The position numbers were made by a program, and so were the translations under genes. Source: an uncultured Thermotogae bacterium (GTDB lineage: Bacteria; Bipolaricaulota; Bipolaricaulia; M55B111). Taken from it: 64,000 nt of DNA. Below the pieces are notes generated by a model. The model did no database searches. It worked only from the letters and a program-made list of their open reading frames with translations, and was not told the origin of the DNA. How positions within the stretch are numbered: the stretch's first letter is position 1; each line of letters begins with the position of its first letter. Positions 8,205 to 53,834 of this stretch are shown here, in pieces. The stretch lies in NCBI GenBank assembly GCA_964614065.1, contig CAZTJJ010000001.1, positions 9,028-73,027 of the forward strand, written 5' to 3'.

Positions 8205-9872
<1,668 letters not shown>

Positions 9873-9884
9873 CTAAGTTAAATG

Positions 9885-10246: not shown

Positions 10247-10255
10247 ATCTGAAAA

Positions 10256-12761: not shown

Positions 12762-12786
12762 TATTTGCGGATAGGAGGTATATAAA

Positions 12787-13467
12787 ATGATTCTATCTGA
12801 ACCGAAGTCATGGGAGGAAATACAAGGATATCTGGAGAACGATAATAGTGTCTTTGTCCTAGGGTGTGGTGGCTGTGATGCTGCTACTGGAGACGGAGGG
12901 GCAGAACGTGTAACCGATCTATCTAAAAAACTGACCGAGGAAGGGTGGAAGGTGTCGGGAACTAGGGTGGTCGAATTTCTCTGTAATAAAGCACTTGCAG
13001 GAATGAAGCTTGCCCGCGTTTCCGAGCAGATTGAACAAAGCGATTCTTTACTTGTCTCCTGTTGCGGTATTGGTGTACAGGCAGTTAGCAAGCTGGTTGA
13101 TAAGCAGGTCCACCCGGCAAACGATACTATATCCATGGGAGATTTCCATGGAACCTGGCCCTCTGAAGAAACCTGTAAAAGATGCGGAGAATGCCTATTG
13201 GAGTATACTGGGGGAATTTGTCCACTTACTATGTGTATTAAAGGTCTTCTCAACGGTGCTTGTGGAGGTTCATATCAAGGGAAATGTGAGGTGGAACCTG
13301 GACGCCCCTGCGGATGGGAATTAATTTATCAGAGGCTAAAGGATATCGGTCGCTTGGATTTGCTCGAACAGTACAATCCCCCTAAAACTAGAAAAAAATA
13401 TGAGTTCGGAGTTCCCGTTGAAGAACGGAGTTCACTTTACTGGGCGATTGAAGCTGAGGAGGAATAA
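12787..13467 (+). CDS. metV: MetV-like Cys-rich protein (methylene-THF reductase C-terminal-domain family, predicted FeS).
   Basis: 226 aa with 'GCGGCD', 'SCCGIG' and 'CKRCGECLLEYTGGICPLTMCIKGLLNGACGG'. Sits immediately upstream of metF and overlaps it, as in acetogen metVF. Confidence 0.65.
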   Translation: MILSEPKSWEEIQGYLENDNSVFVLGCGGCDAATGDGGAERVTDLSKKLTEEGWKVSGTRVVEFLCNKALAGMKLARVSEQIEQSDSLLVSCCGIGVQAVSKLVDKQVHPANDTISMGDFHGTWPSEETCKRCGECLLEYTGGICPLTMCIKGLLNGACGGSYQGKCEVEPGRPCGWELIYQRLKDIGRLDLLEQYNPPKTRKKYEFGVPVEERSSLYWAIEAEEE

Positions 13468-34522: not shown

Positions 34523-35407
34523 ATGAAAAGAAAACTCATCAAGTTACTTACCAATCCGTTGTCGGTTGTCGGTCTTGCATTAATCTTCTTTTTTGTGGGA
34601 GTAGCAATTGCTGCCCCCTGGATCGCTCCTCCAGAAGATCCTGACGAGCCTTACAGAGTTCCCAGGGATGGCTGGTCTTCTACTCCCAAGCCACCAGGTG
34701 AAGGTCATATATTTGGTACCACACAAGGTCAGTACGATATCTTTTATGGCGTTGTATGGGGTACCAGGACAGCGTTTCGGGTTTCCTTGATGGTAGTCGG
34801 ATTGTCGTCTATAATCGGGATCATTGTCGGGACTCTAGCTGCTTACTATGGAGGAGCAGTCGATAGCGTATTGATGCGGATAGTCGACGTTTTTTACTCC
34901 ATCCCTTACTTGGTTGCGGCCATGGTATTGACAACGATTCTTGGAAGAAGCTTAACAAACGCGTTAATTGCATTGATTGTTTTCGGCTGGATGGGTTATG
35001 CCCGTCTTATTAGAGGTAATATTCTATCCGTTAAGGAAGAAGAATACGTTTCATCTGCTAACGCGGTCGGGGCGACTGATTTTCGCATTATCTTTAGGCA
35101 TATTCTACCCAACTCTATTTTCCCGGTGGTTGTACAAGCCTCCATGAATATGGGCACTATTGTGATTACTGCAGCCACACTAAGTTTTCTTGGAGTAGGT
35201 GCACCGTCTGGTTACGCCGACTGGGGTCAGATGATAAGTTTCGCCAGAAATTGGATACTTGGGATTCAGGGAAACACCTTTCAGTACTGGTATACTGTAG
35301 TCATACCTGGAGCGTCAATTACCCTTTTCTGCCTTTCGTGGAACCTTGTCGGAGACGCATTTAGGGACATCATGGATCCCAAGCTACAGGGAGGCGGCGG
35401 GATGTAG
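34523..35407 (+). CDS. ABC transporter permease, OppC/DppC type.
   Basis: 294 aa, TM-rich with an N-terminal OppC-like extension. Confidence 0.85.
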   Translation: MKRKLIKLLTNPLSVVGLALIFFFVGVAIAAPWIAPPEDPDEPYRVPRDGWSSTPKPPGEGHIFGTTQGQYDIFYGVVWGTRTAFRVSLMVVGLSSIIGIIVGTLAAYYGGAVDSVLMRIVDVFYSIPYLVAAMVLTTILGRSLTNALIALIVFGWMGYARLIRGNILSVKEEEYVSSANAVGATDFRIIFRHILPNSIFPVVVQASMNMGTIVITAATLSFLGVGAPSGYADWGQMISFARNWILGIQGNTFQYWYTVVIPGASITLFCLSWNLVGDAFRDIMDPKLQGGGGM

Positions 35408-35561
35408 TGAGGCACCATGGCTCTGGCAATTATCTTTCTTTTGCATCTGCATCCAGACCGAAATTGATAGTAGGACAGTACTGTAACTTGTTGTATTAGT
35501 TAGAAGATAATCATTAGGGAGAAAGTCGAACAGCTTAGCTCAGAGTTTGTACGCGCTGTTA

Positions 35562-35590
35562 TTGCGTGACCTAGCCCGCTGTGCTATACT
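35562..35590 (+). promoter_or_regulatory. Putative sigma-70 promoter (TTGCGT-17-TATACT) upstream of the EF-G-like gene.
   Basis: Hexamers and spacing about 85 nt upstream of the ATG at 35676. Confidence 0.35.
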
Positions 35591-35675
35591 CGATTACGTT
35601 TACGTAACTATCCTGTCTTTAAGTTTAGCAAATTTAATAATTGATGCTATGTTGATGAATTGAGGTGATAACTTC

Positions 35676-37613
35676 ATGGCGAATTCTAAGACTTTGAGTC
35701 TAATTGGACATTCTGGGACTGGGAAATCTGAACTCGCAAAGAAATTTTTACAGATGAGCGGGATCGACGGGGAACTCACCTTTGATCCCTCGCCTGAGGA
35801 AAAAGACCATGGCCATTCCATAGATTTGAGTATCGGTTCATTCAAGTATAGTGGACAATCCTGGAATGTGCTAGATACACCTGGTGCCGATGAGTTTGTG
35901 GAAGAGGTCTACAAAGGTGTGTTTATGTCAGAGTCAAGCTTGTTGTTTGTCGATGGGGAAAAAGGTGTTCAAGCCCATACCGAAGGGTTATGGGATATAT
36001 CGCAACAGTATGATAAACCCACTGCCGTCTTTATGAATAAGATGGATAAGGAGGAGGCTAACTTTGACGAATCTCTAACCGAAATTAGGGAAACTTTCGA
36101 GAAAAATATAGTGGTCTTGCAAATTCCGATAACTGAAGGTGGAGAATTTGTTGGTTTGGTTAACGTCCACAGAGCAGAGGCCATATATTTTGACGAGAGT
36201 TCGAATGACCTTCCTGATAAACTTTCTGACACTCTAGAGTCAGAGCGCGAGAGGCTACTTGAAGCGTTAGCTGAGCAGGATGATGAATTAATGATGAAGT
36301 ACCTGGAGGAGGAAGAAATAACGGACGAAGATATTGGTCGTGCTCTGAATAAAGGATTCAAGTCTAATGAGTTCGCTCCGCTACTTGTTGGTTCAGTCGA
36401 GGAGGATTTGGGACTTGATTTGCTTTTGTCTCATTTAACCGATCTGGTACCCGAGTTTGATCCTGAGGAGAGTAGCGGACGCTCGGATCTATTGGTGTTT
36501 AATCTCTTATCGGACCCCTATTTGGGGCGTCTTTCGTTCGTGAAGGTGTATGGTAAGGAGTTAAGAGAAAACGTGAGTTTGAGGAATGTCCGTACAGGTG
36601 ATGACGTGGAAATATCCGACATGTATAGATATCACGGAGGAGATCAGGAGAAAATACACGAGGCGTCCTGTGGTGATATTGTGGCTTTGGGGAAACTGGA
36701 AGAGGTAGCTTTGGGGGATACTTTGACTGATACTGGCGATGAACTGATTGAATTTATCGAGTTCCCCACCCCCGTGTACGATCGCGCAGTTCACCCAAAG
36801 AGCAGGGAAGATGAAACCAAGATGAGCACAGCATTACAGGAGTTAGTTTCAACAAAAGCCACCATTTCTTATCATAGAGATGACGTTACCGAAGAGATGA
36901 TCCTGTCAGGTATGGGCGCGAATCATCTCGATATTTTCAGGGAGAGATTAAAAAGTAGCTTTAACGTAGAGATCGAAACTTCTGAACCTAAGGTACCTTA
37001 CAAGCAGAGTGTTGCGAAAAAGGCAAAAGCAAAATATCGACACAAGAAACAATCAGGTGGTCGCGGTCAATATGGAGAGGTCTATCTAGAGGTTACTCCT
37101 TTGAAGCGTGGTTCGGGATTTGAGTTCGAGAATAACATAAAAGGTGGTAATATTCCCACCCAATTTATTCCCGGCGTTGAAAAAGGCGTTCTGGAAGCTT
37201 TGGATCAGGAATACCCAATTACGGATTTAAAGGCTACTGTATACGATGGTGCCCATCATCCAGTGGATTCTTCCGAGATGGCATTTAAAATTGCTGGTAG
37301 AGAGGCTTGCAAAAAGGCTGTTGAGAACGGCAAGAAAATTTTATTGGAGCCTATTATGAAAGTTACGGTGAGAACACCCGGCGATTTTACTGGTGACATC
37401 ATTAGTGATCTGAATGGTCGTCGAGGAAGAATTCTGGGATCTGACTCTTCTGAGGGTTACACATTAATTAACGCTGAGGTACCACAAGCGGAGGCAAAGA
37501 GTTACGCAACTAGATTAAAATCTTTAACCCAGGCAAGGGCTTCATTTCAGATGGAATTTTCCAAGTATCAAAGAGTACCAAGTAACATCGCGGATAAGGT
37601 CTTCGCAGAGTAG
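35676..37613 (+). CDS. EF-G-family paralogue. Domains III-V are well conserved, but the G domain is divergent and the catalytic His is replaced (DTPGADEF).
   Basis: 645 aa. P-loop 'GHSGTGKS', G3 'DTPGA' instead of DTPGH, G4 'NKMD'. Domain IV/V 'SGGRGQYGEVYLEV...AHHPVDSSEMAFKIAG...LLEPIMKV' aligns closely with EF-G. Confidence 0.8.
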   Translation: MANSKTLSLIGHSGTGKSELAKKFLQMSGIDGELTFDPSPEEKDHGHSIDLSIGSFKYSGQSWNVLDTPGADEFVEEVYKGVFMSESSLLFVDGEKGVQAHTEGLWDISQQYDKPTAVFMNKMDKEEANFDESLTEIRETFEKNIVVLQIPITEGGEFVGLVNVHRAEAIYFDESSNDLPDKLSDTLESERERLLEALAEQDDELMMKYLEEEEITDEDIGRALNKGFKSNEFAPLLVGSVEEDLGLDLLLSHLTDLVPEFDPEESSGRSDLLVFNLLSDPYLGRLSFVKVYGKELRENVSLRNVRTGDDVEISDMYRYHGGDQEKIHEASCGDIVALGKLEEVALGDTLTDTGDELIEFIEFPTPVYDRAVHPKSREDETKMSTALQELVSTKATISYHRDDVTEEMILSGMGANHLDIFRERLKSSFNVEIETSEPKVPYKQSVAKKAKAKYRHKKQSGGRGQYGEVYLEVTPLKRGSGFEFENNIKGGNIPTQFIPGVEKGVLEALDQEYPITDLKATVYDGAHHPVDSSEMAFKIAGREACKKAVENGKKILLEPIMKVTVRTPGDFTGDIISDLNGRRGRILGSDSSEGYTLINAEVPQAEAKSYATRLKSLTQARASFQMEFSKYQRVPSNIADKVFAE

Positions 37614-37617
37614 GGCA

Positions 37618-38205
37618 ATGTTAGTAAGAGAATTTATAACGACTGATCCTGCTACGGTTGCTGAAGGAGCTACAGTCTCTCATACCAGGGAATTAATGGA
37701 AGGAAATAACTTTCGTATTATTTTTGTTATGGATAGCGAGGAGAGACTTAGTGGTTTTTTAACCTATGAGTCAATAAAAGACAAGCCTGATGACAGGTTA
37801 ATTGACGACTTTATATCCCATTCCACACTGCACGCGCGGGTTGACGACACCATAGATAAAGCAGTCAGTATTATCAGAGAGTACAGTTTGATGGTTTTGC
37901 CCGTTGTTGACCGGGATAGGAAACTGGTGGGAGTTCTGACGCCGGGTAAATTGTTTGAGGAGTTTTCGGAACTTTTAAATTTTGGTGAAGGTGGTTTCTG
38001 GTTGACGTTGAATTCTAATGATTTGGTTGACATCGAGAATTTGGTGTCAGTTGTAAATAAACACGACGTACAACTTCTTAGCCTATTAAATTCTCCCTCC
38101 GATGAAGAAAATAGATTGATTGTGAAGATTGGTAGAGTCAAGGATGCGGAAAAGTTTCGAGAATCTCTTGAGAGGGCGATGAGTAATGAAAAAGATATCC
38201 GTTAA
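37618..38205 (+). CDS. CBS-pair domain protein.
   Basis: Two CBS-like motifs ('...FRIIFVMD...' and '...[18 protein letters not shown]'). Confidence 0.7.
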
Positions 38206-38578
38206 ATCCAGTGAGCGGATTGAGTTTATCGATATTACTTCCAAAGTAAATGAACTGATTGAGAAGGCCGGGATTGAGGAAGGTATTTGTTATCTTTACG
38301 TGCCTCACACTACCGCCGCTGTTACCATCAATGAATCTGCAGATCCGGATGTGGTTAAGGACATTGCCGGTCAGTTGAAGGAACTAGTCCCGTCCAGCAA
38401 GAATTACAGACACAGAGAGGGAAATGCGGATTCCCATATTAAGTCAAGTCTCATGGGAAGTTCGGTACTGGTTTTTGTCGAGAATGGCCAGTTGAAATTG
38501 GGGACCTGGCAGGGTATATTCTTCTGTGATTTCGATGGACCCAGGACTAGAAGGGTTTGGGTAAAAGTTCGCAAATAA
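38186..38578 (+). CDS. yjbQ: YjbQ/UPF0047-family protein (secondary thiamine-phosphate synthase-like).
   Basis: 130 aa, '[16 protein letters not shown]...[14 protein letters not shown]' matches the YjbQ family. Confidence 0.8.
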
Positions 38579-38629
38579 CGGTAGCGGTTGAAAATCCAGA
38601 GCCCTTTCGGTAAAATCACTCTGCTCTCA

Positions 38630-38705
38630 GCCGGTGTAGCTCAATCGGCAGAGCAGTCGACTTGTAATCGACAGGTTGCCAGTTCAAGTCTGGCCGCCGG
38701 CTCCA
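38630..38705 (+). tRNA. tRNA-Thr, anticodon TGT.
   Basis: 76 nt; acceptor GCCGGUG/CGCCGGC, anticodon stem-loop GUCGA-CUUGUAA-UCGAC, T arm GCCAG-UUCAAGU-CUGGC, then CCA. Confidence 0.9.
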
Positions 38706-38751
38706 GAGTTTGTTTGATCGTGACAAGGATAAGGTAGGTAATTGTTCGCTG

Positions 38752-38837
38752 GGAGGGGTACCGAAGTGGCCAAACGGAGCGGACTGTAAATCCGTTGGCA
38801 GGCGCCTTCGGGGGTTCAAATCCCTCCCCCTCCACCA
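38752..38837 (+). tRNA. tRNA-Tyr, anticodon GTA.
   Basis: 86 nt class II tRNA; anticodon loop CUGUAAA, long variable arm, 3' CCA. Confidence 0.88.
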
Positions 38838-38922
38838 TCCCCTAAAAATTGCTTCTGTAAGCAGTTTCTTGGCGGTTGAGACGTTGATAGTTTTGTAATA
38901 TCATTTTGTTATATTTGGTTAC

Positions 38923-38998
38923 GCCCGTGTAGTTCAGTCGGTAGAACATCCCGTTGGTAATGGGAAGGTCGCCGGTTCAATTCCGGCCGCGGGCTCCA
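38923..38998 (+). tRNA. tRNA-Thr, anticodon GGT.
   Basis: 76 nt; anticodon loop UUGGUAA; T arm GGUUCAAUUCC; CCA end. Confidence 0.9.
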
Positions 38999-39082
38999 AA
39001 ACCGCTTTAGTTAATAGTCGGCGGTTTAGCCATGATTATTTAAAGGTATTTTCATAATTATATAACTTCGAGGAGGTACACG

Positions 39083-40282
39083 ATGGCAAAAGAACATTTT
39101 GAGCGGGATAAGCCGCACCTGAATATTGGAACCATTGGCCATATTGACCATGGGAAAACTACGTTGACTTCGGCGATGACGAAACTATTGGCCAATATGG
39201 GATTGGCGGAAGGTAAAGAATTTAATGACATTGACAACGCACCTGAAGAACAGGAGAGAGGAATCACTATTGCTGTACGGCACGTCGAATATGAGACGGA
39301 AAATAGACACTACGCGCATATAGATGCTCCTGGTCACGCCGATTACGTCAAGAATATGATTACTGGTGCGGCCCAGATGGATGGGGCCATATTAGTTGTA
39401 TCAGCTGCTGATGGACCGATGCCACAGACTCGGGAACACGTTTTGTTGGCTAGACAGGTTGGGGTACCTGCTATGTTAGTGTTCCTCAACAAAACGGATA
39501 TGGTTGATGACCCCGACCTTATTGACCTAGTTGAAATGGAAGTTAGAGACTTACTTAATGAGTATGAGTTCCCGGGTGATGATGTGCCGATTATCAGAGG
39601 TTCAGCGTTGGAAGCTATGCAAAGTGATGGTGATCCGGAGGCAGAGGTCAACCAACCAATTTTGGAACTCCTTGAAACCCTGGACGAGTACATTCCATTA
39701 CCTGATCGAGACGAAGATAAACCATTTTTGATGCCTATTGAAGATGTATTTTCCATTAAGGGTCGAGGCACCGTTGCAACGGGACGTGTCGAGAGAGGGA
39801 AGATTACTCCTCAGTCTGAAATTGAAATAGTAGGTTTGCATGGCGATATTGTAGAAACAGTGGCCACGAGCCTTGAAATGTTCAACAAGACGATGGACGA
39901 GGCAATAGCCGGCGACAACGTTGGTGTTCTGTTACGAGGAATGGATAAAGAGGATATCGAACGGGGACAGGTGCTGGCAGACCCTGAAAGCATAACTCCA
40001 CATACACACTTTATGGCGGAAGTATACGTGTTAAGCAAAGATGAAGGCGGGCGTCATACACCGTTTTTCGATGGGTATAAGCCACAGTTTTATTTCCGGA
40101 CAACCGATGTGACAGGAAGTATTACTCTTCCTGAGGGTGTTGAGATGGTCATGCCTGGGGATAACGTTAATTTGGAAGCTGAGTTAATTGAGCATATTGC
40201 TATGGAAGAAGGTTTGAGATTTGCGATCCGTGAAGGTGGCAGAACCGTAGGTGCTGGCGTAGTTACGGAAGTATTGGAATAA
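39083..40282 (+). CDS. tuf: Elongation factor Tu.
   Basis: '[10 protein letters not shown]', 'DAPGHADY', 'NKTD'; 399 aa. Confidence 0.98.
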
Positions 40283-40298
40283 ACCGAGGCTAAGTTTC

Positions 40299-40448
40299 AT
40301 GCACAAGGAACAGGTAATTTTAGTATGTAGTGAATGTGGCAGGCAAAACTACCACACTGTTAAAAATCCACGTAACGATAAGGATAAATTGGAGTTAAAG
40401 AAGCACTGTAAGTGGTGTAAAGCCCATACAGTTCATAAGGAGAAGTAG
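40299..40448 (+). CDS. rpmG: 50S ribosomal protein L33.
   Basis: 49 aa, MHKEQVILVCSECGRQNYHTVKNPRNDKDKLELKKHCKWCKAHTVHKEK, a zinc-ribbon L33. Too short for the ORF track; found by manual translation. Confidence 0.85.
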   Translation: MHKEQVILVCSECGRQNYHTVKNPRNDKDKLELKKHCKWCKAHTVHKEK

Positions 40449-40476
40449 CCACGACAAGTGATTTTCTACACTATAC

Positions 40477-40552
40477 AGGCCTGTAGCTCAATTGGCAGAG
40501 CGCCGGACTCCAAATCCGAAGGTTGGGGGTTCAAGTCCTCCCGGGCCTGCCA
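40477..40552 (+). tRNA. tRNA-Trp, anticodon CCA.
   Basis: 76 nt; anticodon loop CUCCAAA; sits in the conserved position between rpmG and secE. Confidence 0.9.
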
Positions 40553-40834: not shown

Positions 40835-41932
40835 TTGAGCATGAAAAAATGGTACGCCATTCAAACCTACGCGGGCTCAGAGTTAAAGGTTAAGCAGGAG
40901 CTTGAGAGGCGTATAGAAAACCGTGGGCTTGAAGGTCAGGTAAAGAGTTTTGCTGAGGACGGCAAGCGGGATTTTTGTGTGGTGCCTATTGAAGAGGTAA
41001 TTACCTCTCGTAGCCGGAGAGGTAAGTCGAATGAATATAGAGTACCTTACAACTACGATTTATTAGTCGAGGCAAACGAACGGCTTTCTAGGCATGACCC
41101 ACTTGCACGAAAGAAACCCAAACATATAGAGTGGGATTGCTTGGTAGAAGAGATTAAGTCTCTGCAAAGAGTAATCATAGAGATGACAAACAGGACGGAG
41201 GAAACTTACCTTATCCCTAAGGATAAAAGGATTAGAAGGGATATTAGGAAGGGCGAGAAGATAAGATCAGGCGTCCCCTTGACCTCAGATCAGGAGGAAA
41301 AGTTTGTTGTTAGTATAAAGGGAAAAATAGCTTTAAGAGATAGAGTTAAACAAATTACGTTTATTCTCGATGATGGTTCTGAAAAAGAGTTGATAATTCC
41401 CGAAAGGTGCCTGGTTAGGTTGAGGGAGGGTGACGAGTTAAACGAAGGTGACATGATCGAGAAGGAAGATGTAATTAAGTCGACGTCGTCTGGAATGGTC
41501 AAAGTTAAAGAATACAAAGACAAGCGAGTGGTTACCGTTCAACCTGTGGAAAAACGTAGGTTATTTCCTGGTTATGTATTTGTAAAGATGGATCTTCCGG
41601 AAGAACAGATGATTGATTTGATTGATGATATTAGGGGAGCAGTGAGGTTTGTGGGATCTAGATATCATCCAATACCGATACGTGGAAAAGAGATGAAGGT
41701 TATAAAAAGGTTGGCTGGTTTGATAGAAGCGCCAACTGCTCCTAGTACTCCGCGTATCGAAGTCGACTTTGACGTGGGAGAGGTCGTGGAAATTGTGGAG
41801 GGACCATTTGCTGATTTCACTGGAGAAATTACGGCGATAGATAAGGAGACTGAAGAGGTAACTGTCAACGTTAAGATATTTGGCCGAGAAACTCCGGTAG
41901 ACATCGGTTTCGAAGGAATAGAGAAAATTTAA
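40835..41932 (+). CDS. nusG: Transcription termination/antitermination factor NusG carrying a large insertion domain.
   Basis: N-terminal NGN 'KKWYAIQTYAGSE' and C-terminal KOW 'GEVVEIVEGPFADFTGEI'. At 365 aa, an insertion of about 190 aa is implied inside NGN, as in Thermotoga and Aquifex NusG. Confidence 0.88.
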   Translation: MSMKKWYAIQTYAGSELKVKQELERRIENRGLEGQVKSFAEDGKRDFCVVPIEEVITSRSRRGKSNEYRVPYNYDLLVEANERLSRHDPLARKKPKHIEWDCLVEEIKSLQRVIIEMTNRTEETYLIPKDKRIRRDIRKGEKIRSGVPLTSDQEEKFVVSIKGKIALRDRVKQITFILDDGSEKELIIPERCLVRLREGDELNEGDMIEKEDVIKSTSSGMVKVKEYKDKRVVTVQPVEKRRLFPGYVFVKMDLPEEQMIDLIDDIRGAVRFVGSRYHPIPIRGKEMKVIKRLAGLIEAPTAPSTPRIEVDFDVGEVVEIVEGPFADFTGEITAIDKETEEVTVNVKIFGRETPVDIGFEGIEKI

Positions 41933-44491: not shown

Positions 44492-47400
44492 TTGAGGGAA
44501 CGAACGGATTTCAGCACGTACGGTGAAGCAATCGAACCACCCGATTTACTCAAAGATCAAAAAGACTCTTATACTAAATTTCTAACTACTGGCATTGAGG
44601 AAGCATTTAGCGAAGTTTCCCCCATCAAGGCGAGTAGTCGGACAAACTTCAGCTTAGAACTCCTCAATCCGTCCTTGGGAGATCTTCGAAGCTCCGTTAG
44701 TGATTGTGCTGATAAAGATCTGACCTACGATAGGCCGTTGCGGGTCGAGGCTCGCTTATCAGACGACGAAGGTGAGGTTGTTGCGGAGAATGAACTTTAC
44801 GTTGCGGATATACCCGTAATGACACCAAAGGGAACGTTTTTGATCAATGGTTCGGAAAACGTTTTGGTCAACGAATTGGCTCGAGCACCTGGTGTTTACA
44901 TTACAGCAGAGCGCAATAACCAGTATAAAGCACACATCCTACCAGATTACGGTGCATGGCTCGAATTGATTTTAGACGATAATAGGGAGAGAGTTTACGC
45001 TAATCTGGACAGGGAAGCTAAGGTTCCGATAACTGTGTTTCTGAGGGCTTTGGGGATGGATCAGGAGGATATATATTCCAAGTATAGTTTCGAGGTCAAC
45101 CCCGTTAAGGAAGCAGATTTGTTGGACTACGTGGACTACGTTTTGGCTGAGGACGTCACGAGCGATGATGGATTATTGATTAACGCTGGTGAGAAACTCA
45201 GAAAAGAGGACGTGGCCTTGATAGTCAAAGAGGGCACTAACGAGTCGATTTCTTTCTTGGATAGATATATTGGGAACACTCTGAAGAGAGATGACTTACG
45301 GACTAAAGAAGAAGCAATCAGGTTTATCTATGCCAAGTTGAGACCTACTGGTCGCGTTTCTACCACCAAAATGGAGAATTACATACACGGACTTTTCTTT
45401 GACGAAGAAAACTACCTTCTTTCAGAGGTTGGCAGGTTTAAAGCCAATAGCAAGCTTGGATTGGACGAAGAGACTTTAGCGTTAACAGAGAAGGATATCT
45501 TCAGGTCGCTCGATTTGCTGTTACAGGTTCCTTACAATCCAGAGTTATTAGATGAAAAAGATCATCTGGCAAATAAAGTGGTGAATTTGCCCGGCAAGGC
45601 AGCTAGAGCGGCTTTTGAAAGGGGTTTAAATAGAGTTGTCCGAACTACAGCCGATAAATTATCTAAGTTTAGTCTGGATGATGACGACACCCTTCGTGAC
45701 ATCGTCCCAACTAGGCCCGTTCAATCTTCGCTCAATCAGTTCTTTTACACGGGAAGGTTTTCCCAGTTTCTCGAGGAAACGAATGCTTTGGCAGAGCTGA
45801 CTCATAAAAGAAGACTTAATGCCTTAGGGGGTGGCTTGAGTCAACGCAGGGCGAAGCTAGAAGTGCGAGACGTTCACCCGTCTCATTATTCAAGGGTATG
45901 TCCAATTGAGACCCCCGAAGGACAAAATATTGGGTTGATAACCTCGCTGGCAAATTATGCCCATATCAACGAATATGGTTTTATTGAGGCGCCTTATCAA
46001 AAGGTTGAAGAAGGTCGAGTGACGGGAGAGATTGAATATCTCATGGCTGGCGAAGAAGAGCAGTACGGAATTGCACCATCGACAACGGAAGTAGATGAGG
46101 ATGGGTATCTGGTTGGCGATAGGATAGAGATCCGGACTGGCAAGGAAGATATCCAGCTTGGGAGACCGGAGGATGTGGATTTTGTCGGTGTGTCTCCGAA
46201 GGCAATTGTTGGAGCTTCTGCCTCGTTAATCCCTTTCCTGGAGCATGACGACGCAAATAGAGCGTTGATGGGTGCAAATATGCAGCGGCAGGCGGTTCCA
46301 TTATGTAACCCGGAGTCACCTTTTGTTGGAACAGGCATGGAAGCCAAAGCTGCCGAGGATTCTGGAATGCTGGTTATTGCTGAGAAGCCGGGGAAGGTCC
46401 AGTACGTGGACGCTGATAGAATCGACGTTGAAGAAGGCACTGACACCGTCAAATCCTATAATTTGAAGACGTTCACCCGCTCAAACCAGGACACTTTGGT
46501 TCACCAACGGCCTCTTGTTGAGAAAGGTGATAATGTAGAGAAAGGTGACGTGTTGGCTGATGGCTCTACAAGTGATCATGGTGAACTTGCCCTTGGCCGG
46601 AATCTCAGGGTTGCCTTCATGCCGTTCGAAGGTTACAACTACGAAGATGCAATAGTCGTATCGGAACGGTTGGTAAAAGAAGACCTCATGGATTCTATAC
46701 ATATAGAGGAATTCGAGGTCAAGGCAGAGGAAACGAAACTCGGTCCGGAAGAAATAACTGATGATATACCCAACATCAGTAAAGAAGACTTAAAAAATCT
46801 TGATTCACGGGGAGTAATTCGAGAAGGGACAGAAGTCGAAACAGGTGACGTGTTAGTAGGTAAAATAACTCCCAAAGGTGAATCTGAGCCGAGCCCCGAA
46901 GAAAAGATATTCCGGTCTATATTCGGAGAACAGGCCAGGAACGTCAAGGATTCGTCGCTCAAGCTCCCTCCCACAGCCGGCAAAGGAAAAATCATTAGAG
47001 TTAAGCGGTTTTCTCGTGATGAAGGAGACGAGCTGGATACGGGGATTAACGAGCTTGTAAAGGTTTACGTGGCCACCCGAAAGAAGATTTCGATTGGTGA
47101 TAAGCTGGCTGGACGACATGGAAATAAAGGTGTTATCTCCAACATACTGCCCGAGGAAGACGTGCCATTCCTGCCGGATGGCTCACCCGTGGACGTTTTA
47201 TTGAACCCACTGGGTGTTCCATCCCGGATGAACCTAGGTCAAGTGTTTGAAACCCACTTGGGCTGGTTGGCTTCTTTAAAAGATGAATACGTTTCTACAC
47301 CCGTGTTCGACGGAGCCAAAGAGGGGGAAGTGCTAGAGGAACTCTCAAAGGCCCAGGCACAAACAGGGTTAAGTGACGGTTCGAACGACGATGGCAAAGT

Positions 47401-47824
47401 GGTTCTGAGAGATGGTCGAACAGGAAAGCCTTTCGATAGGCCAATTACCGTGGGTTATATGTACGTTCTCAAGCTTGAACACATCGCTGACGAGAAGTTG
47501 CACGCCAGATCTACCGGCCCATATGCTTTAATTACTCAACAACCTCTCGGCGGTAAGGCACAGTTTGGTGGCCAGCGTTTTGGAGAAATGGAGGTATGGG
47601 CTCTTGAAGCTTACGGGGCGGCGAGTACCTTGCAGGAAATGCTGACCTTAAAGTCCGACGACATTCACGGCCGGACAAAATTGTACAAGGCGATATTAAA
47701 GGACGAACCCATGCCTAGACCAGGAATTCCCGAATCCTTTAAAGTGCTGGTCAGGGAGTTACGGGGCTTAGGGCTTGCTCCAAAAGCTCTAGATAAAACC
47801 GGGAATGAACTTGACCTGTCCTGA
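44492..47824 (+). CDS. rpoB: DNA-directed RNA polymerase beta subunit.
   Basis: 1110 aa; 'GGQRFGEMEVWALEAYGAA' and other Rpb2 signatures; complete C-terminus. Confidence 0.98.
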   Translation: MRERTDFSTYGEAIEPPDLLKDQKDSYTKFLTTGIEEAFSEVSPIKASSRTNFSLELLNPSLGDLRSSVSDCADKDLTYDRPLRVEARLSDDEGEVVAENELYVADIPVMTPKGTFLINGSENVLVNELARAPGVYITAERNNQYKAHILPDYGAWLELILDDNRERVYANLDREAKVPITVFLRALGMDQEDIYSKYSFEVNPVKEADLLDYVDYVLAEDVTSDDGLLINAGEKLRKEDVALIVKEGTNESISFLDRYIGNTLKRDDLRTKEEAIRFIYAKLRPTGRVSTTKMENYIHGLFFDEENYLLSEVGRFKANSKLGLDEETLALTEKDIFRSLDLLLQVPYNPELLDEKDHLANKVVNLPGKAARAAFERGLNRVVRTTADKLSKFSLDDDDTLRDIVPTRPVQSSLNQFFYTGRFSQFLEETNALAELTHKRRLNALGGGLSQRRAKLEVRDVHPSHYSRVCPIETPEGQNIGLITSLANYAHINEYGFIEAPYQKVEEGRVTGEIEYLMAGEEEQYGIAPSTTEVDEDGYLVGDRIEIRTGKEDIQLGRPEDVDFVGVSPKAIVGASASLIPFLEHDDANRALMGANMQRQAVPLCNPESPFVGTGMEAKAAEDSGMLVIAEKPGKVQYVDADRIDVEEGTDTVKSYNLKTFTRSNQDTLVHQRPLVEKGDNVEKGDVLADGSTSDHGELALGRNLRVAFMPFEGYNYEDAIVVSERLVKEDLMDSIHIEEFEVKAEETKLGPEEITDDIPNISKEDLKNLDSRGVIREGTEVETGDVLVGKITPKGESEPSPEEKIFRSIFGEQARNVKDSSLKLPPTAGKGKIIRVKRFSRDEGDELDTGINELVKVYVATRKKISIGDKLAGRHGNKGVISNILPEEDVPFLPDGSPVDVLLNPLGVPSRMNLGQVFETHLGWLASLKDEYVSTPVFDGAKEGEVLEELSKAQAQTGLSDGSNDDGKVVLRDGRTGKPFDRPITVGYMYVLKLEHIADEKLHARSTGPYALITQQPLGGKAQFGGQRFGEMEVWALEAYGAASTLQEMLTLKSDDIHGRTKLYKAILKDEPMPRPGIPESFKVLVRELRGLGLAPKALDKTGNELDLS

Positions 47825-48254
47825 TGATCAAACCGCGGTAGAAATTTCTGCTGGTGTAATATCTTATCGTTGTTTTTCTAATACCCACAAGTATTTGTTA
47901 ATAAAGCACGCTAATGGGGGGCATTGGAGTTTTCCGAAGGGGCACGTCGAAACTGGTGAAAGTTTAAAGGAAAGCGCAGTAAGGGAGCTATCCGAAGAAA
48001 CCGACCTGTCCGTAAAGAAATTTGTCAGTGGCTTTCGTGAGAAGGTAGCTTATCACATTCGCCGAGAAGGAGAAATTGTTAGAAAACGGGTAGTATATTT
48101 CTTAGCCAGGGTCACTGATGGAGAAGTGGAATTGTCTCCAGAACACGTCGATTTCAAGTGGCTTTCCCATGAAGAGTGTTTGGACGTGATTACGTACGAG
48201 GACGATCGAAGTCTATTGAACTCTGCAGAGCAGACGTTAATTAATCAAGCATAG
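47805..48254 (+). CDS. NUDIX hydrolase.
   Basis: Nudix box 'GHVETGESLKESAVRELSEETDL'; the ORF overlaps the rpoB 3' end by 20 nt. Confidence 0.8.
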   Translation: MNLTCPDDQTAVEISAGVISYRCFSNTHKYLLIKHANGGHWSFPKGHVETGESLKESAVRELSEETDLSVKKFVSGFREKVAYHIRREGEIVRKRVVYFLARVTDGEVELSPEHVDFKWLSHEECLDVITYEDDRSLLNSAEQTLINQA

Positions 48255-48273
48255 ACCAAGGTATTCCAAAAAG

Positions 48274-49146
48274 ATGAGCTTACCTGAACACGTGCACCTT
48301 ATAGATACAGGATTATTTGGTTACCAAAACTATGGAGCAAGTTATGTTATTGGTTGTTCCGAGCTTGCACTGGTAGATCCTGGTACATCAAATGCAGTTT
48401 CAGCAATAGAGAGCTGGTTTACGGAAGGCTCAGCTGACCTTTCAGACTTAGCCAGTATTGTACTTACTCACATTCATCTTGATCATGCTGGCGCAACTGG
48501 CGAGCTGGTCAGGATGGTTCCCGACCTAAAAGTTTACGTACATGAGCGCGGTGTTCCTTATCTTGTCGATCCAGCTGACCTGATTGAGAGCGTAAAACAA
48601 GCTACTGGCGACCGCTTTCCTCAGTATGGTACGTTAGCACCGGTACCTCAAAAAAATATCGTTCCTATTAAGAACGAAACCACCATTTCCATTGGGGATC
48701 TAGATCTCTTGGCTTTACCCACCTCAGGTCATGCTCCTCATCATATCTCCTATTTAGAGAAAGAATCTCGAATAATGTTTCCCGGTGATAGTGCCGGGCT
48801 TTACGTGGATCACCAGCTTATACCTACTACCCCACCTCCGTCCTTCAATCTGGAGGAAAGTATATCCAGTTTGGAAAAAATGAAGGAGAAAAGACCATCT
48901 ACGTTACTTTTCCCCCATTTTGGAACAAGAAAGAACCCACTCGAGTTGATGGACAAATACCAGGAACTTCTGGTGGATTGGGTTAATTCTATTCGGGATA
49001 AGTACTTAGCTGGAACCCCACGGGAGGAGTTAGATTCGTGGGTAGTCAGGAACTTTGACCAGTGGCTCGGTAATGGTTTTACCGAAGAAGAGCTGTTGAT
49101 GAATCTGTCCGGCGTGATACGATATCTCTCCTGGCGTAGTTCTTAA
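48274..49146 (+). CDS. MBL-fold metallo-hydrolase.
   Basis: 'HIHLDHAG' metallo-beta-lactamase motif, plus downstream His/Asp ligands. Confidence 0.8.
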   Translation: MSLPEHVHLIDTGLFGYQNYGASYVIGCSELALVDPGTSNAVSAIESWFTEGSADLSDLASIVLTHIHLDHAGATGELVRMVPDLKVYVHERGVPYLVDPADLIESVKQATGDRFPQYGTLAPVPQKNIVPIKNETTISIGDLDLLALPTSGHAPHHISYLEKESRIMFPGDSAGLYVDHQLIPTTPPPSFNLEESISSLEKMKEKRPSTLLFPHFGTRKNPLELMDKYQELLVDWVNSIRDKYLAGTPREELDSWVVRNFDQWLGNGFTEEELLMNLSGVIRYLSWRSS

Positions 49147-49168
49147 TTCAGGGGAGTCCGAGATCGAG

Positions 49169-51325
49169 ATGGCGAGAAAAAAGTTTGCTCGGGTCGCCGT
49201 TTTCTTACCTATAGACAAAATATTTGAATACTCTGTTCCCTCGGAACTGGCAGGAGAAGTGACCAAGGGTTCTATATGCGAGGTTCCATTTAGAGATAAG
49301 GCCGAACATGGTGTGGTTCTTGACCTCCAAGAACAAGGAAGTTATGAGGGAGAGTACAGCGAGATATCCCGGTTACTTTCTCCTGTTCCACTGTCTGATA
49401 ATTTAATTAAGCTGGCAGAATGGCTCTCCGAATCCACACTCACTCCATTAGGACAGGTTTTCAACCGCATGATTCCCGCTGATCTTTCTATTAATCCAAG
49501 GAAGAAAAAGGTTATAGGCATTAACGCTACCTTTTCACGGGTGAAAGATTTTGTCGAGGAATTCGGTTCCCGCGCGCCAAAGCAGGCCGCTTTATTGAAG
49601 TTGCTTTTATCGACCGATGGTTACATGACTAAACGAAGATTGTTAGATGAAGCAAGATGTTCTAGGTCTCCTATCGACTCTTTGATAGGAAAGGGATTGG
49701 TGCGTGAAAAGTCTGTGCCGAATCTCTCTGATGATTCCGTGTGGTCTGACTTAACCATCGCGCTTGCCAAAGGCAAAGGAAGTCAGGGGAAGGCGAGAAT
49801 TCGAACTAATACTTTTGGAGTGTTTACCGTTCCTGGAGAGTTGAGATCAAGGTTGCAGGTGTACCTAAACTGTATAGATAAGCTAGCATCTGAAGGTAGC
49901 GTGTTGGTGCTCGTTCCCAATACGTTCAGGGCTGAGGAAACCAAAAGGTTGATCAACAGAAAATTGAGTCTCAGCTGTTATGCTTACCATAGTGGGTTGT
50001 CAGCAGGAGAAATATCCAGGCGCTGGCAACTGGTCCAGTCTGGCCAACCAGACGTAGTTGTCGGGGTCATAAATGCGATCTATTTACCTTTTCCTGACCT
50101 TCGTGGGATAGTCGTGGACGGGGAGGGCGACAGGAATTATGCGTTAACTGAGCAGGACCCCAAAGGAAACCTTGTGGATATATCTCTGTATCGAGCGAGA
50201 TTAGAAGATGTCCCAATTCTACTCGGAGACTCGAGCCCTTCTGTATCCACGTATTATGCTTCCACTCGTGGAAAGGCAACTTCTTTAACTCAGTATTTCT
50301 TCCCTGAAGCCGCGGGAACAGCTGATTTAATCATCGAAGACACCAGCTATTTAGCTGGTACACGCAGTTTAGGTAACGTCATGAAAGAGAGGGTGCTTGA
50401 AACCATTTCCGAGGATGAGCCCGTCTTGTTGATCGGTGAGCGGACCAGGCAATCAAATGTCATAATATGTGGTGATTGTGGGAAAGTGATGAAGTGTCCA
50501 AATTGTGAGGTAGCCTTAAAATTTACTAGTTCGGGCCATTTTGGCTTTTGCCCATATTGTGGATATAAGGAGGAACTGGTAACTTGCCCGAACTGTGGCG
50601 GCGAAAACCTGAATTTCCTCGCAGCTGGTTTGGAAGAAGTTGAGTCAGAATTAACTGATTTTTTGCCGTCCGCTTCCATAGAGAGGTTCGATTCCAGAAC
50701 GAGTGGCCCATACCAGCTTTTCCAGCTAGTTCGTAAATTGTTGACCGGAGAGCTTGATGTATTGATGGGTACATGGGTTGCTGCTAGTTACTTTCTTTAT
50801 CACAAGGTAGGGCTTGTAGGATTACTGGATCCAGACTTAGTGTTAGACTGGTCGAGTTATCGCTCTACGGAAAGGTTTATCAAGAAGGTTCTTCGTGGAT
50901 TAGATTTGGGCGGAAAGGATGGTACTTTGGTTGCCCAGAGTTATCATCCTGATAATCCCGTAGTGAGTGCCGTGCGCTCGCGCCAGTGGAAAAGAATTTA
51001 TCAAGATGAGCTTGCTTCAAGACAAAGACTAGCCTACCCACCTTTTATTGATCTGGTTGAGGTTCACGTTAAAGCAACCGAAGAGGATGAAGTTAGGGCT
51101 ATTGCCACTGATTTGAAGGATAGAGTTGCCGGGCTGGCAGGGGTTAATGTTGTGCTTGGTCCGGTGAAACTACATCCGAATCCAAAAAGTGGCGAATACG
51201 AATTGAAGCTTTTGGTCAAAGTGAATTACTTAAGTAGCTTCTTGGAAAAATTACCGGAGGTCCTTCAGAGCATTAATCGTGATCAGATACGTTTAGTGCC
51301 AGTCTTTTCGAGATTTGACCCTTAG
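49169..51325 (+). CDS. priA: Primosomal protein N' (PriA) homologue with degenerate helicase motifs.
   Basis: 3'-BD N-terminus 'ARVAVFLPIDKIFEYSVP...GSICEVPFRDK'; Cys4+Cys4 zinc-binding insert 'CGDCGKVMKCPNCEVALKF...CPYCGY...CPNCGG'; PriA-like core 'LVLVPN...YHSGLSAGE...IVVDGEGDRNY'. The Walker A lysine and the DEEH box are absent. Confidence 0.8.
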   Translation: MARKKFARVAVFLPIDKIFEYSVPSELAGEVTKGSICEVPFRDKAEHGVVLDLQEQGSYEGEYSEISRLLSPVPLSDNLIKLAEWLSESTLTPLGQVFNRMIPADLSINPRKKKVIGINATFSRVKDFVEEFGSRAPKQAALLKLLLSTDGYMTKRRLLDEARCSRSPIDSLIGKGLVREKSVPNLSDDSVWSDLTIALAKGKGSQGKARIRTNTFGVFTVPGELRSRLQVYLNCIDKLASEGSVLVLVPNTFRAEETKRLINRKLSLSCYAYHSGLSAGEISRRWQLVQSGQPDVVVGVINAIYLPFPDLRGIVVDGEGDRNYALTEQDPKGNLVDISLYRARLEDVPILLGDSSPSVSTYYASTRGKATSLTQYFFPEAAGTADLIIEDTSYLAGTRSLGNVMKERVLETISEDEPVLLIGERTRQSNVIICGDCGKVMKCPNCEVALKFTSSGHFGFCPYCGYKEELVTCPNCGGENLNFLAAGLEEVESELTDFLPSASIERFDSRTSGPYQLFQLVRKLLTGELDVLMGTWVAASYFLYHKVGLVGLLDPDLVLDWSSYRSTERFIKKVLRGLDLGGKDGTLVAQSYHPDNPVVSAVRSRQWKRIYQDELASRQRLAYPPFIDLVEVHVKATEEDEVRAIATDLKDRVAGLAGVNVVLGPVKLHPNPKSGEYELKLLVKVNYLSSFLEKLPEVLQSINRDQIRLVPVFSRFDP

Positions 51326-51520: not shown

Positions 51521-53830
51521 ATGGATAGATTTAATACCAGTGGATTGTCGAATCCGGTTTATTGTTTCTTAATCTGCATATTCGTCTTCTCGTTGGGATA
51601 TGTAGTAGTTGGCCAATCTTACCGGCCAGTTGGAAAAGCCGATCCAATTATTGCTTATATACTTGATAGACAACAGCGAGTATCTAATTTATCTGACACT
51701 GAGCTAAAACTGGAATCTTTTATTGGTTCAATTGATCTGTACAGGGATAATTTATTTTTCCCTGCATCTGCCGGGATCAAAGGTACTTGCTCGCGAAACA
51801 GGGTTACGGAGAAGGAGCTTGACAAAACCGGTATGTATGACATTGGGGTAATAGCAAAATTTACAAAACCTGCCATATATGTAGATATGCCTGGATTGAC
51901 CATTACTTCCACCATGGGCAGAATTGCGACTGCGATAGCCAATGTAAATTCCATCTCATCTCTTCTGGCAGCCGACGATGTGGAATATCTTGCTTCCTCA
52001 CGACCCGTGTATCCCTTACTTACGGAGAGTGTACCTGCTGTTAATGCGGCGTCTTTACACAATACCCAGCCAATGGATCGTGGCGAAGGCGTGATTATTG
52101 GGTTCGTCGATTCCGGTATTGATTACGATCACCTGGATTTCCGCCGTGACGAGGACGGTCAAATCCCCGGAGAGGAGACGTCCCGGATTTCATTTATATG
52201 GGATCAGACGGATGGCTATGGGTTACCGCCAAATGGCTACAGTTACGGGAGTGAATACTCGAAAAGCCAGATAGAACAGGATATCCGCTCGGGATTGGGT
52301 CCTACAGAGGGAGCAGTAAGAGAGGTGGATGAAGAAGGTCATGGAACTCACATTGCCGGGATAGCTAGTGGGGATGGGTCTTCTTCAGATCTCGGGTTCG
52401 TGGGCATGGCTCCTGATTCATCTTTGATCTCCGTGAAGACGACTTTTTCAACAAGTTCTGTCCTGGATGGGGTTAGCTACATAGAACAAAAAGCTTACGA
52501 ACTCGGCCAGCCCGTGGTTGTTACAAATCTTTCATTGGGAACCCAGTACGGTCCACACGATGGAACGTCTTTATTCGAGGAAACATTGACGAATCTCTCT
52601 TCCGATAGCCACATTATAGTGGTTTCAGCCGGGAATTCCGGCGATAAAAATATTCATCTTGGAGTGGATACGTATCTAGGAATGAGTGAAGAGTACTCGA
52701 TCTACCTTCCAGTTTATAGTCCTTCTTCTGAAGTTTCCGATCATTTTAATCTCGATGGGTACTACGACAGTGGTGGTTATATAGAGGCCAAGGTAATTGG
52801 TCCAGATCAGGCTGAGACTGATTGGGTAGGTAAGGGTGAAGCGGCTTCGTTTGTAATGAGCAGCGGTAGCGTGCTTATCTCTAATGGCCCATCGACCATT
52901 ACTGGTGATACTCAATTGTTTGTTCGGGTTGGTGATTTACAACCAGATACCCCTCCTGATCCAGGCAATTGGCGATTGCGTATTCGGGCAGCTTCGTCGT
53001 CTCGATTGGATATGTGGGTAAGCAGTAATTTGCTCGGAAATGCCTGTAGGGATATCGAATTTTCGGAGGGCAATACGAAGATGACGATTGCAGAGCCAGG
53101 TAACGCTCGGGACGTAATAACGGTGGGCTCATTTAATACGAGAAATAGTTGGGACGGGAAATCCGTTTTCGGCTTTCCAGCTGGGAGCTTATCTGATTAT
53201 TCAAGCAAAGGTCCAACGAGGGATGGAAGAGTTAAACCGGATGTTTCTGCACCTGGGGCGTGGGTGGTATCTACTTTATCTGGATCAGCGAATGTTGATG
53301 ATTTTTATCTAGTTTCAGACGGCTTGCACTGGTCTATGGCTGGCACCAGTGTTTCTGCACCTCACGTCGCTGGTGCGACTGCTTTAGTTTGGTATGCAGC
53401 ACCAGAATCCACTGGTGCTGAAGTAACCGCTCGGCTATGTGAGACAACAGATTCCGAAGGGGTGTTCTTGCCCAATAACGAGTGGGGATGGGGTAAACTG
53501 AACGTGGGAAAAAGTGTATTTAGTTTCGGGATTTCAGGCGATGAACTGGATCAAGATCTGTGGATTCGAGCTACTCCAAACCCAGCTCAGGAATACGCGG
53601 ATCTTTTTTATAGTTATCCCGAAGGTGCTGCGAAGTTAAGGATTGAGATTTATAATGTTCTTGGCAGGGTTGTCAAGGAGATTGACGAAAGCGAATTGAC
53701 CGACGGTTTGAAGTATCGGTGGTATTTAAAAAACGATGATGGCATACCACTTGCAAACGGACTCTATATTTACTTGATCAGGATTGAAGATCGATGCTCC
53801 GATTTGAGTAGACTTGTGATAAGGAGATAA
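51521..53830 (+). CDS. Subtilisin-like (S8) serine protease with a C-terminal T9SS/Por-type sorting domain.
   Basis: S8 triad contexts 'GFVDSGID', 'HGTHIAG', 'GTSVSAPHVAG'; C-terminal ~80 aa 'NPAQEYADLFYSYPEGAAKLRIEIYNVLGRVV...NGLYIYLIRIE' resembles a Por_Secre_tail/FlgD-Ig CTD. Confidence 0.85.
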   Translation: MDRFNTSGLSNPVYCFLICIFVFSLGYVVVGQSYRPVGKADPIIAYILDRQQRVSNLSDTELKLESFIGSIDLYRDNLFFPASAGIKGTCSRNRVTEKELDKTGMYDIGVIAKFTKPAIYVDMPGLTITSTMGRIATAIANVNSISSLLAADDVEYLASSRPVYPLLTESVPAVNAASLHNTQPMDRGEGVIIGFVDSGIDYDHLDFRRDEDGQIPGEETSRISFIWDQTDGYGLPPNGYSYGSEYSKSQIEQDIRSGLGPTEGAVREVDEEGHGTHIAGIASGDGSSSDLGFVGMAPDSSLISVKTTFSTSSVLDGVSYIEQKAYELGQPVVVTNLSLGTQYGPHDGTSLFEETLTNLSSDSHIIVVSAGNSGDKNIHLGVDTYLGMSEEYSIYLPVYSPSSEVSDHFNLDGYYDSGGYIEAKVIGPDQAETDWVGKGEAASFVMSSGSVLISNGPSTITGDTQLFVRVGDLQPDTPPDPGNWRLRIRAASSSRLDMWVSSNLLGNACRDIEFSEGNTKMTIAEPGNARDVITVGSFNTRNSWDGKSVFGFPAGSLSDYSSKGPTRDGRVKPDVSAPGAWVVSTLSGSANVDDFYLVSDGLHWSMAGTSVSAPHVAGATALVWYAAPESTGAEVTARLCETTDSEGVFLPNNEWGWGKLNVGKSVFSFGISGDELDQDLWIRATPNPAQEYADLFYSYPEGAAKLRIEIYNVLGRVVKEIDESELTDGLKYRWYLKNDDGIPLANGLYIYLIRIEDRCSDLSRLVIRR

Positions 53831-53834
53831 TTAC

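Follow-up and report, generated by a model that had tools for sequence, protein, structure and literature searches.

Paralogues of elongation factor G (EF-G) that belong to the EFG II subfamily are recognised by a set of diagnostic positions, and their switch I has been described as relaxed from the consensus RGITI to xxxSx (Margus, Remm & Tenson 2011, PMC3150367). One of them, EF-G2 of Bacteroides thetaiotaomicron, is a non-essential alternative factor, induced by starvation, that 'enables GTP-independent translation' (PMC10294740; Han 2023 as cited in PMC12775393). EF-G2 of Mycobacterium smegmatis, in which the catalytic histidine is replaced by tyrosine, has no ribosome-dependent GTPase activity, and the role of the hydrolysis-centre residues in activation by the sarcin-ricin loop (SRL) has been addressed for mycobacterial EF-G1 and EF-G2 in the same study (bioRxiv 10.64898/2026.05.25.727771). 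The Escherichia coli variant EF-G H92A is 'highly deficient' in hydrolysis, yet it supports slow multi-turnover translocation (PMC12775393). Here we describe an EF-G-like gene located in a stretch of 64,000 nucleotides from the candidate phylum Bipolaricaulota (contig CAZTJJ010000001.1 of assembly GCA_964614065.1, positions 9,028 to 73,027 of the forward strand; hereafter the window). Judged from its sequence, this gene most likely encodes the EF-G2 of Bipolaricaulota, a paralogue of EF-G that would bind ribosomes in an accessory role.

The product has the complete EF-G architecture, with Pfam matches to GTP_EFTU (residues 6-259), EF-G_D2 (273-352), EFG_III (363-436), EFG_IV (438-552) and EFG_C (556-641), and a Shine-Dalgarno sequence, GGTGA, lies 8 nt 5' of the ATG (Table 1). 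Fold and domain order are those of canonical EF-G (EFG I, fusA; TIGR00484), to which the protein is 49% identical in domain IV and 44% in domain V but only 29% in the G domain. The original prediction, made from the DNA letters, had called the protein an EF-G paralogue with a replaced switch II histidine, a divergent G domain with the P-loop GHSGTGKS, and domains IV and V close to those of the canonical factor; all of this holds. Residue equivalences, derived from an alignment to EF-G of Thermus thermophilus (Tth; 1DAR/1EFG numbering), show that three canonical motifs have changed, AHIDAGKTT into GHSGTGKS, RGITI into HGHSI and DTPGH into DTPGA. The nucleotide-binding elements were nevertheless kept, namely GxxxxGK[ST] (Walker A), a switch I Ser/Thr able to coordinate Mg, the Asp and Gly of DxxG, and NKxD; G5 reads GSV. 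Also retained were the acidic G' helix (DDELMMKYLEEEE), which is the docking element for L7/L12, and both tip loops of domain IV in their canonical form (KKQSGGRGQYG and HHPVDSSE). By contrast, every element of the SRL-activated hydrolysis machinery has been lost (His87 to Ala, Ile21 to Ser, Ile63 to His and Asp22 to Gly), and the side chain of Ala or Gly is chemically unable to replace His. Ribosome-activated hydrolysis is therefore probably impaired, as had been proposed. As for nucleotide binding in the rest of the family, the Lys of NKxD, present at position 122 of the window protein (nt 36039-36041), is replaced by Gln, His or Met in about 70% of its members, so that nucleotides may be bound more weakly or differently by many proteins of the clade.

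Table 1. The EF-G2 gene, its sequence motifs and the genes downstream of it (positions in the window)
Feature	Position	Strand	Remarks
EF-G2-type (EFG II) elongation factor G paralogue	35676..37613	+	ATG start, 645 aa, five domains
G1 / P-loop GHSGTGKS, residues 11-18	35706..35729	+	EFG II-type Gly for Ala19; Ser-Gly for SRL-contacting Ile21-Asp22
G2 / switch I HGHSI	35808..35822	+	Ser48 for Mg-coordinating Thr64; His47 for hydrophobic-gate Ile63
G3 / switch II DTPGA	35874..35888	+	Ala71 (GCC, 35886-35888) opposite catalytic His87 (Tth) / His92 (E. coli)
G4 NKMD, guanine-specificity motif	36036..36047	+	intact in the window protein; Q/H/M for Lys in most of the family
Domain IV loop I KKQSGGRGQYG, residues 457-467	37044..37076	+	family-invariant; includes EFG II-type Lys-Lys 498/499
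Domain IV loop II GAHHPVDSSE	37248..37277	+	His528 equals Tth His573; tip entering the decoding centre
CBS-pair protein, 195 aa	37618..38205	+	start 5 nt past the EF-G2 stop; operon partner in 40/60 family loci
YjbQ / UPF0047 protein, 130 aa	38186..38578	+	20-nt overlap with the CBS gene; operon partner in 52/60 family loci
tRNA-Thr(tgt), tRNA-Tyr(gta), tRNA-Thr(ggt)	38630..38998	+	between the EF-G2 operon and tuf
tuf (EF-Tu)	39083..40282	+	first gene of tuf-rpmG-secE-nusG-rplKAJL-rpoB; cluster follows the EF-G2 operon in 27/47 family loci

We then compared the protein with the positions that distinguish EFG II from EFG I, and seven of the eight were found in the EFG II state. Among those of type I, Gly11 stands at position 16(19), where EFG I has Ala, and is invariant in 118 family members; Leu20 stands at 25(28), where Thr follows the P-loop in EFG I; Ser48 replaces the switch I Thr at 61(64), with Ser in 69 and Thr in 49 members of the family; and in domain II, Gly321 at 333(360) and Lys340 at 352(379), the latter being Lys or Arg in EFG II, are family-invariant, as is Leu20. 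The two type II positions of domain IV, 471/472 (498/499), both carry the expected Lys (Lys457-Lys458), again without variation. Another trait of EFG II, location outside the str operon (rpsL-rpsG-fusA), is shared by the window gene. The G domain and domain II are also less conserved than domains IV and V, as in the rest of EFG II, and the prototype of the subfamily, T. thermophilus EF-G-2 (PDB 1WDT/2DY1), has the same five-domain fold and could be aligned along the whole N-terminus, with GHAGSGKT and DAPGY at the corresponding motifs.

Database models and similarity searches pointed in the same direction. The only NCBIfam model above its cutoff was NF009381 (PRK12740.1-5, 'elongation factor G'; 682.7 bits, cutoff 583, residues 3-644), which explains why public annotations of metagenome-assembled genomes (MAGs) read 'elongation factor G'. 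Scores remained below the cutoffs for canonical EF-G (TIGR00484, 520.5 versus 659.4 bits; AHIDAGKT, RGITI and DTPGH are all altered), for EF-G2 (NF009377, 431 versus 890), for the EF-G2 of Bacteroidota (NF058620, 445.8 versus 1000 bits) and for the tetracycline (Tet) protection proteins (NF012153, 260.7 versus 775 bits). An exhaustive phmmer search of 1.84 billion representative proteins returned only two representatives of the Bipolaricaulota family (658 and 579 bits), after which the score falls to 483 bits. Among the 150 nearest representatives, 117 had the EFG II-type Gly in G1, and His was absent from 133 of the 137 with a readable G3, its place being taken mostly by Tyr (74), Phe (25), Asp (8), Ser (7) or Leu (5). 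Among the matches listed, 80 EF-G loci from named genomes separated into two clean classes: 29 genes with DTPGH, nearly all with AHIDAGKTT and all but one adjoined by S7 and/or S12, and about 50 His-less genes with [GAS]H..xGKT, in which DTPG precedes Tyr, Phe, Asp, Glu or Thr and which all lie outside str operons. In a neighbour-joining tree, the Bipolaricaulota sequences formed one clade on the EFG II side, far from the tight EFG I clade and on a deep branch of their own. With midpoint rooting, the tree leaves open whether this clade lies inside or beside EFG II, and the assignment therefore rests on the diagnostic residues and on the composition of the nearest neighbours. On these grounds, the protein appears to be a member of the known EFG II / EF-G2 subfamily, in which it would form a distinct sub-subgroup, and the absent catalytic His, normal for EFG II in this large sample, is not peculiar to the window gene. 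The idea of an unusual EF-G-like factor is thus correct with regard to the degenerate GTPase centre and the location outside the str operon, but not with regard to novelty, since this is the signature of an already described subfamily. Among canonical EF-Gs, that of Dictyoglomus turgidum is nearest to the window protein, ranking 26th of all representatives; its position 28 is Leu as in EFG II (AHIDAGKTTL), while DTPGH is retained.

The loss of the histidine is real and is a trait of the whole family. The GCC codon recurs in an independent metagenome contig from ENA that is 99.8% identical over the gene, and the 118 full-length homologues all lack His here, having Gly (80), Ala (20), Phe (14), Ser (two) or Leu (two) instead. 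A sequencing error at this codon, which the original prediction had named as a possible refutation, was thereby dismissed, and a pseudogene was ruled out along with it, given the uniform state of the family and the ratio of nonsynonymous to synonymous substitution rates (dN/dS) among its members. Over its full length the gene gave a ratio of 0.05-0.13, with 0.03-0.10 in domains III-V and 0.08-0.17 in the G domain. Such low values reveal strong purifying selection; those of the G domain included, they indicate that the gene is functional and that its G domain still matters.

Conservation is distributed over the protein differently than in canonical EF-G. Identity within the Bipolaricaulota family, compared with that within EFG I, was 50% versus 64% in the G domain, 44% versus 60% in domain II, 60% versus 71% in domain III, 66% versus 59% in domain IV and 61% versus 57% in domain V, so that the gradient of conservation is inverted relative to the canonical factor. 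When EF-Tu divergence is equal, canonical EF-G is better conserved than the family by 9-17 identity points. Between the window and one distant family locus, identity was 48% for the EF-G-like protein, 75% for EF-Tu, 62% for RpoB, 62% for NusG and 55% for L1.

A confident AlphaFold2 model built from the family alignment (pLDDT 86.5, pTM 0.79) could be superposed with TM scores of 0.84-0.89 on ribosome-bound EF-G, on 1WDT and on ribosome-bound EF-G2 of B. thetaiotaomicron (8DMF), the value for the last being 0.88. Taking these data together, we lean slightly towards a GTP-binding but hydrolysis-deficient factor, which would serve as an alternative translocase or as a ribosome-holding factor under energy-poor conditions. 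Such a protein would bind GTP and the GTPase-associated centre of the ribosome as EF-G does, and its domain IV would enter the A site, where movement of tRNA and mRNA would be promoted or locked without GTP hydrolysis or with very slow hydrolysis. It would then act much as E. coli EF-G H92A and B. thetaiotaomicron EF-G2 do, as a natural counterpart of both. The outcome would be slow, cheap translation, or the holding of ribosomes, when energy is scarce, a condition that may be chronic in these organisms, dependent as they are on hydrogen and acetogenesis. Bulk translocation and recycling are assumed to be carried out by a canonical EF-G encoded elsewhere. As a speculation, the CBS protein encoded next to EF-G2 could tie the activity of the latter to adenylate levels; any such coupling of CBS or YjbQ to EF-G2 is suggested by operon structure only.

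This operon structure was examined in 82 family loci, gathered by a metagenome scan with a G-domain-only alignment and by look-ups of individual homologues, and neighbour counts were limited to those with enough downstream flank. Named homologues came from MAGs of Candidatus Bipolaricaulota (Acetothermia, OP1). In the window, genes for an oligopeptide (Opp)-type substrate-binding protein and two permeases are followed by the EF-G-like, CBS-pair and YjbQ genes, tRNA-Thr/Tyr/Thr, tuf, rpmG, tRNA-Trp, secE and nusG, and further by rplK, rplA, rplJ, rplL, rpoB, the genes of a NUDIX hydrolase and an MBL-fold hydrolase, and priA. With the stop of the EF-G-like gene at 37613, the CBS start at 37618 and the 20-nt overlap of CBS and YjbQ, these three genes directly adjoin or overlap one another and so form one operon; the YjbQ/UPF0047 protein matches TIGR00149 ('secondary thiamine-phosphate synthase') with 166 bits. 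A promoter and terminator scan of 35300-39100 yielded sites no more numerous than in shuffled sequence. In the family, YjbQ was encoded at most 1.3 kb downstream of the EF-G2 gene in 52 of 60 loci and the CBS protein immediately downstream in 40 of 60, and tuf followed within 3 kb in 27 of 47, while the upstream neighbours differed (Opp genes, pyruvate:ferredoxin oxidoreductase genes, or genes for sigma-70 and an HHH-domain protein). What is conserved is thus EF-G-like-(CBS)-YjbQ; much of the phylum, but not all of it, has this unit upstream of the tuf cluster. In one Acetothermia MAG the EF-G2 operon stands by itself, away from the tuf cluster, and other genes precede that cluster in Fraserbacteria and in one 780-kb contig. 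Genes for S12 and S7 were lacking within 10 kb, both in the window and in about 80 family loci, which bears out the earlier claim that the gene lies outside the str operon, with tuf behind three tRNAs. The setting between an oligopeptide transporter and CBS/YjbQ genes had also been described rightly, with Opp permeases upstream and CBS/YjbQ downstream, although the status of the latter as phylum-conserved operon partners was missed. The tRNA genes before tuf, together with tRNA-Trp between rpmG and secE (38630-40552), mirror the E. coli order thrU-tyrU-glyT-thrT-tufB-secE-nusG.

Several observations weigh against the assignment or against the mechanism preferred here. At diagnostic position 291(316), type I in domain II, the window protein has Leu277 instead of the EFG II Thr (EFG I: Ile/Val); Leu, Gln, Lys or Val occur there in the Bipolaricaulota family, whereas 26 of 29 other EFG II sequences have Thr. 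Switch I position 63 is Tyr or His in this clade and Ile in most EFG II. EF-G-2 of T. thermophilus has Tyr in place of His and yet shows ribosome-dependent GTPase activity (bioRxiv 10.64898/2026.05.25.727771), so absence of the histidine alone is no proof of absent hydrolysis. Moreover, EFG II is functionally heterogeneous, the Bipolaricaulota clade is a separate deep branch, and EF-G2 of M. smegmatis acts as a stress regulator without translocation (same source). A factor of this last type, which would bind 70S or 50S particles non-productively with its G domain off the SRL, take no part in translocation or recycling, and hold or shield ribosomes in times of starvation, is a possible but distinctly less probable identity of the window protein. 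It would agree with the common subfamily and the same kind of degeneration in G1, G2 and G3, with the fast-evolving G domain, and with an operon shared with a CBS-pair protein, one of a class that senses adenylates or second messengers. On the other hand, both domain IV tip loops, the His573 equivalent included, are family-invariant and domain IV is the most conserved part, which is what a factor working in the decoding centre needs; the domain IV loops of the mycobacterial protein are reportedly placed differently from those of EF-G1 (bioRxiv 10.64898/2026.05.25.727771), and the predicted model fits ribosome-bound translocation states. Because the tip of domain IV is fully conserved, a slow hydrolysis-independent translocase of the B. 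thetaiotaomicron type is at least as strongly indicated as hibernation or protection. Of the ribosome regulator or hibernation/protection factor envisaged in the original prediction, it can be said that it corresponds to one documented behaviour of EFG II and that it has at least an equal in the slow translocase. Far less probable is a ribosome-recycling factor of the Borrelia or mitochondrial EF-G2 type, or a Tet(M)-like protection protein. Factors of either kind are paralogues of EF-G whose genes lie away from the str operon, and NCBIfam gave weak matches to tet_protect and RF3, but recycling paralogues keep G1-G5 and the catalytic His (His145 in mtEF-G2; bioRxiv 10.64898/2026.05.25.727771), the tet_protect score was 260 bits against a cutoff of 775, structures of Tet(M) and Tet(O) ranked far below EF-G, and the domain IV loops of the window protein are of the EF-G type.

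A hydrolysis-deficient accessory EF-G2 presupposes a canonical fusA, and none was found in Bipolaricaulota loci within 10 kb on either side of the EF-G2 gene or rpoB; this, too, counts against it. We therefore considered that the His-less EF-G2-type protein might be the sole EF-G of Bipolaricaulota, performing both translocation and recycling in a phylum without canonical fusA. About 1.2 Mb of loci with a family member contained neither canonical fusA nor rpsL nor rpsG, the gene occurs throughout the sampled diversity of the phylum, two copies were seen in no locus or contig, domains IV and V match those of canonical EF-G in conservation, and the position just upstream of tuf in 27 of 47 loci is reminiscent of the order fusA-tuf. 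Still, the loci extended only 10 kb to each side of the EF-G2 gene or rpoB, so that a fusA elsewhere would escape. The related phylum Dictyoglomota has a normal operon of rpoB-rpoC-rpsL-rpsG-fusA-tuf, followed in Dictyoglomus by rpsJ, and since the tuf cluster and the EF-G2 gene lie apart in other lineages of the phylum and in Fraserbacteria, their linkage is no evidence of an ancestral arrangement. The EFG II signatures, an evolution faster than that of canonical EF-G, and the finding that, in 305 complete genomes, lone EF-Gs were without exception EFG I (PMC3150367) are the reasons why we consider a sole EF-G very improbable. If true, it would mean that a whole proteome is made by an EF-G unable to use the canonical mechanism of GTP hydrolysis, it would break for the first time the rule that a lone EF-G belongs to EFG I, and it would bear directly on the long debate over the purpose of GTP hydrolysis by EF-G.

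Several further routes to a canonical EF-G gave no result. An exact look-up of the window EF-Tu, meant to reveal another tuf copy within a str operon, led only to the tRNA-tuf locus, and the contig beyond the end of the window contained no ribosomal genes. The tblastn searches with S12, S7, S10, L3, L4, L2 and RpoC had no match in the Bipolaricaulota loci gathered by then, and with the canonical EF-G of Dictyoglomus as query, the sequences retrieved (identity of at least 70%) were confined to Dictyoglomus and thermophilic Firmicutes. Two canonical str operons from the metagenome scan (L168 and L170) showed no affinity to Bipolaricaulota, and a literature search on EF-G in Acetothermia or Bipolaricaulota returned nothing relevant. 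In the RpoB neighbourhoods of four further lineages (contigs of 596 kb and 780 kb, Fraserbacteria included), rpoC never came after rpoB, and the str operon was therefore out of reach by this way. The same was observed in every Bipolaricaulota or Fraserbacteria locus examined (window 44492-51325; L084, L087, L175, L176 and L177), the genes 3' of rpoB being those of a NUDIX hydrolase, an MBL-fold hydrolase and priA, or else of a CitMHS transporter and NADH dehydrogenase. For bacteria it is unusual that rpoB and rpoC are separated throughout a phylum. Separately, a 43%-identical family member followed by YjbQ was located at 9839-11980 of the metagenome contig Ga0315338_1000001, a single contig of 3.2 Mb that would amount to a nearly complete genome.

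As for the described EF-G2 proteins, the accessory EF-G2 proposed here differs from each of them in several respects. Compared with other EFG II, its clade has at most 42% identity to any representative, is shorter (645-657 versus about 665-700 aa) and has Gly, Ala or Phe at the histidine position, where most EFG II have Tyr. Its YjbQ (with or without CBS) operon is likewise not a feature of other EFG II genes, for a YjbQ gene lay within 10 kb in only one of about 50 loci from other phyla among the matches listed. B. thetaiotaomicron EF-G2 (fusA2, BT2167; PDB 7UVP/8DMF; Han et al. 2023, EMBO J), reportedly an EF-G paralogue without GTPase activity, is a plausible functional analogue for slow translocation under energy limitation. 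The window protein nevertheless falls outside that clade (EFG2_Bacteroid, 446 against a cutoff of 1000) and has 645 instead of 718 aa, and a counterpart of the carbon-starvation regulation by Cur/BT4338 is not known for its gene. M. smegmatis EF-G2 (MSMEG_6535; PDB 9K0Z/9K10) is also of EFG II type, with degenerate G1-G3 and the catalytic His replaced (Tyr98), but it has altered G4 and G5 and a displaced domain IV where the window protein has NKMD and canonical loops, and its sequence match in the PDB search spans, in the best stretch, no more than residues 321-635. The genes rpsL and rpsG, which accompany canonical fusA, do not adjoin the window gene.

The EF-G2 (EFG II) subfamily is thereby extended to the candidate phylum Bipolaricaulota, as a known family and not a new kind of factor. 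What is specific to the clade, and of modest interest, is the Ala or Gly at the histidine position, the YjbQ/CBS operon and the placement ahead of the tuf cluster. With its perfect domain IV loops, the clade may represent a natural 'H92A/G' EF-G and could provide a clean test case for hydrolysis-free translocation in energy-starved anaerobes. The phylum-wide operon with a CBS sensor protein and with YjbQ, a protein family whose physiological role is unknown, suggests a functional link that has not been examined before.

Other features of the window deserve brief mention. NusG (40835-41932) has 365 aa and contains an inserted NusG_add domain (PF18298), an insertion found in all related loci. 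The region 51521-58747 encodes an S8 peptidase (769 aa), a PorV/PorQ-like protein (316 aa) and a 1321-aa protein with a weak match to SprA, the translocon of the type IX secretion system (T9SS), and this type-IX-secretion-like trio is unexpected in Bipolaricaulota. Finally, genes for the small and large subunits of a NiFe hydrogenase, followed by those for a protein with the C-terminal domain of methylenetetrahydrofolate reductase (MTHFR) and for MTHFR itself, are located at 10387-14342 and fit the hydrogen-dependent Wood-Ljungdahl lifestyle that has been proposed for Bipolaricaulota.

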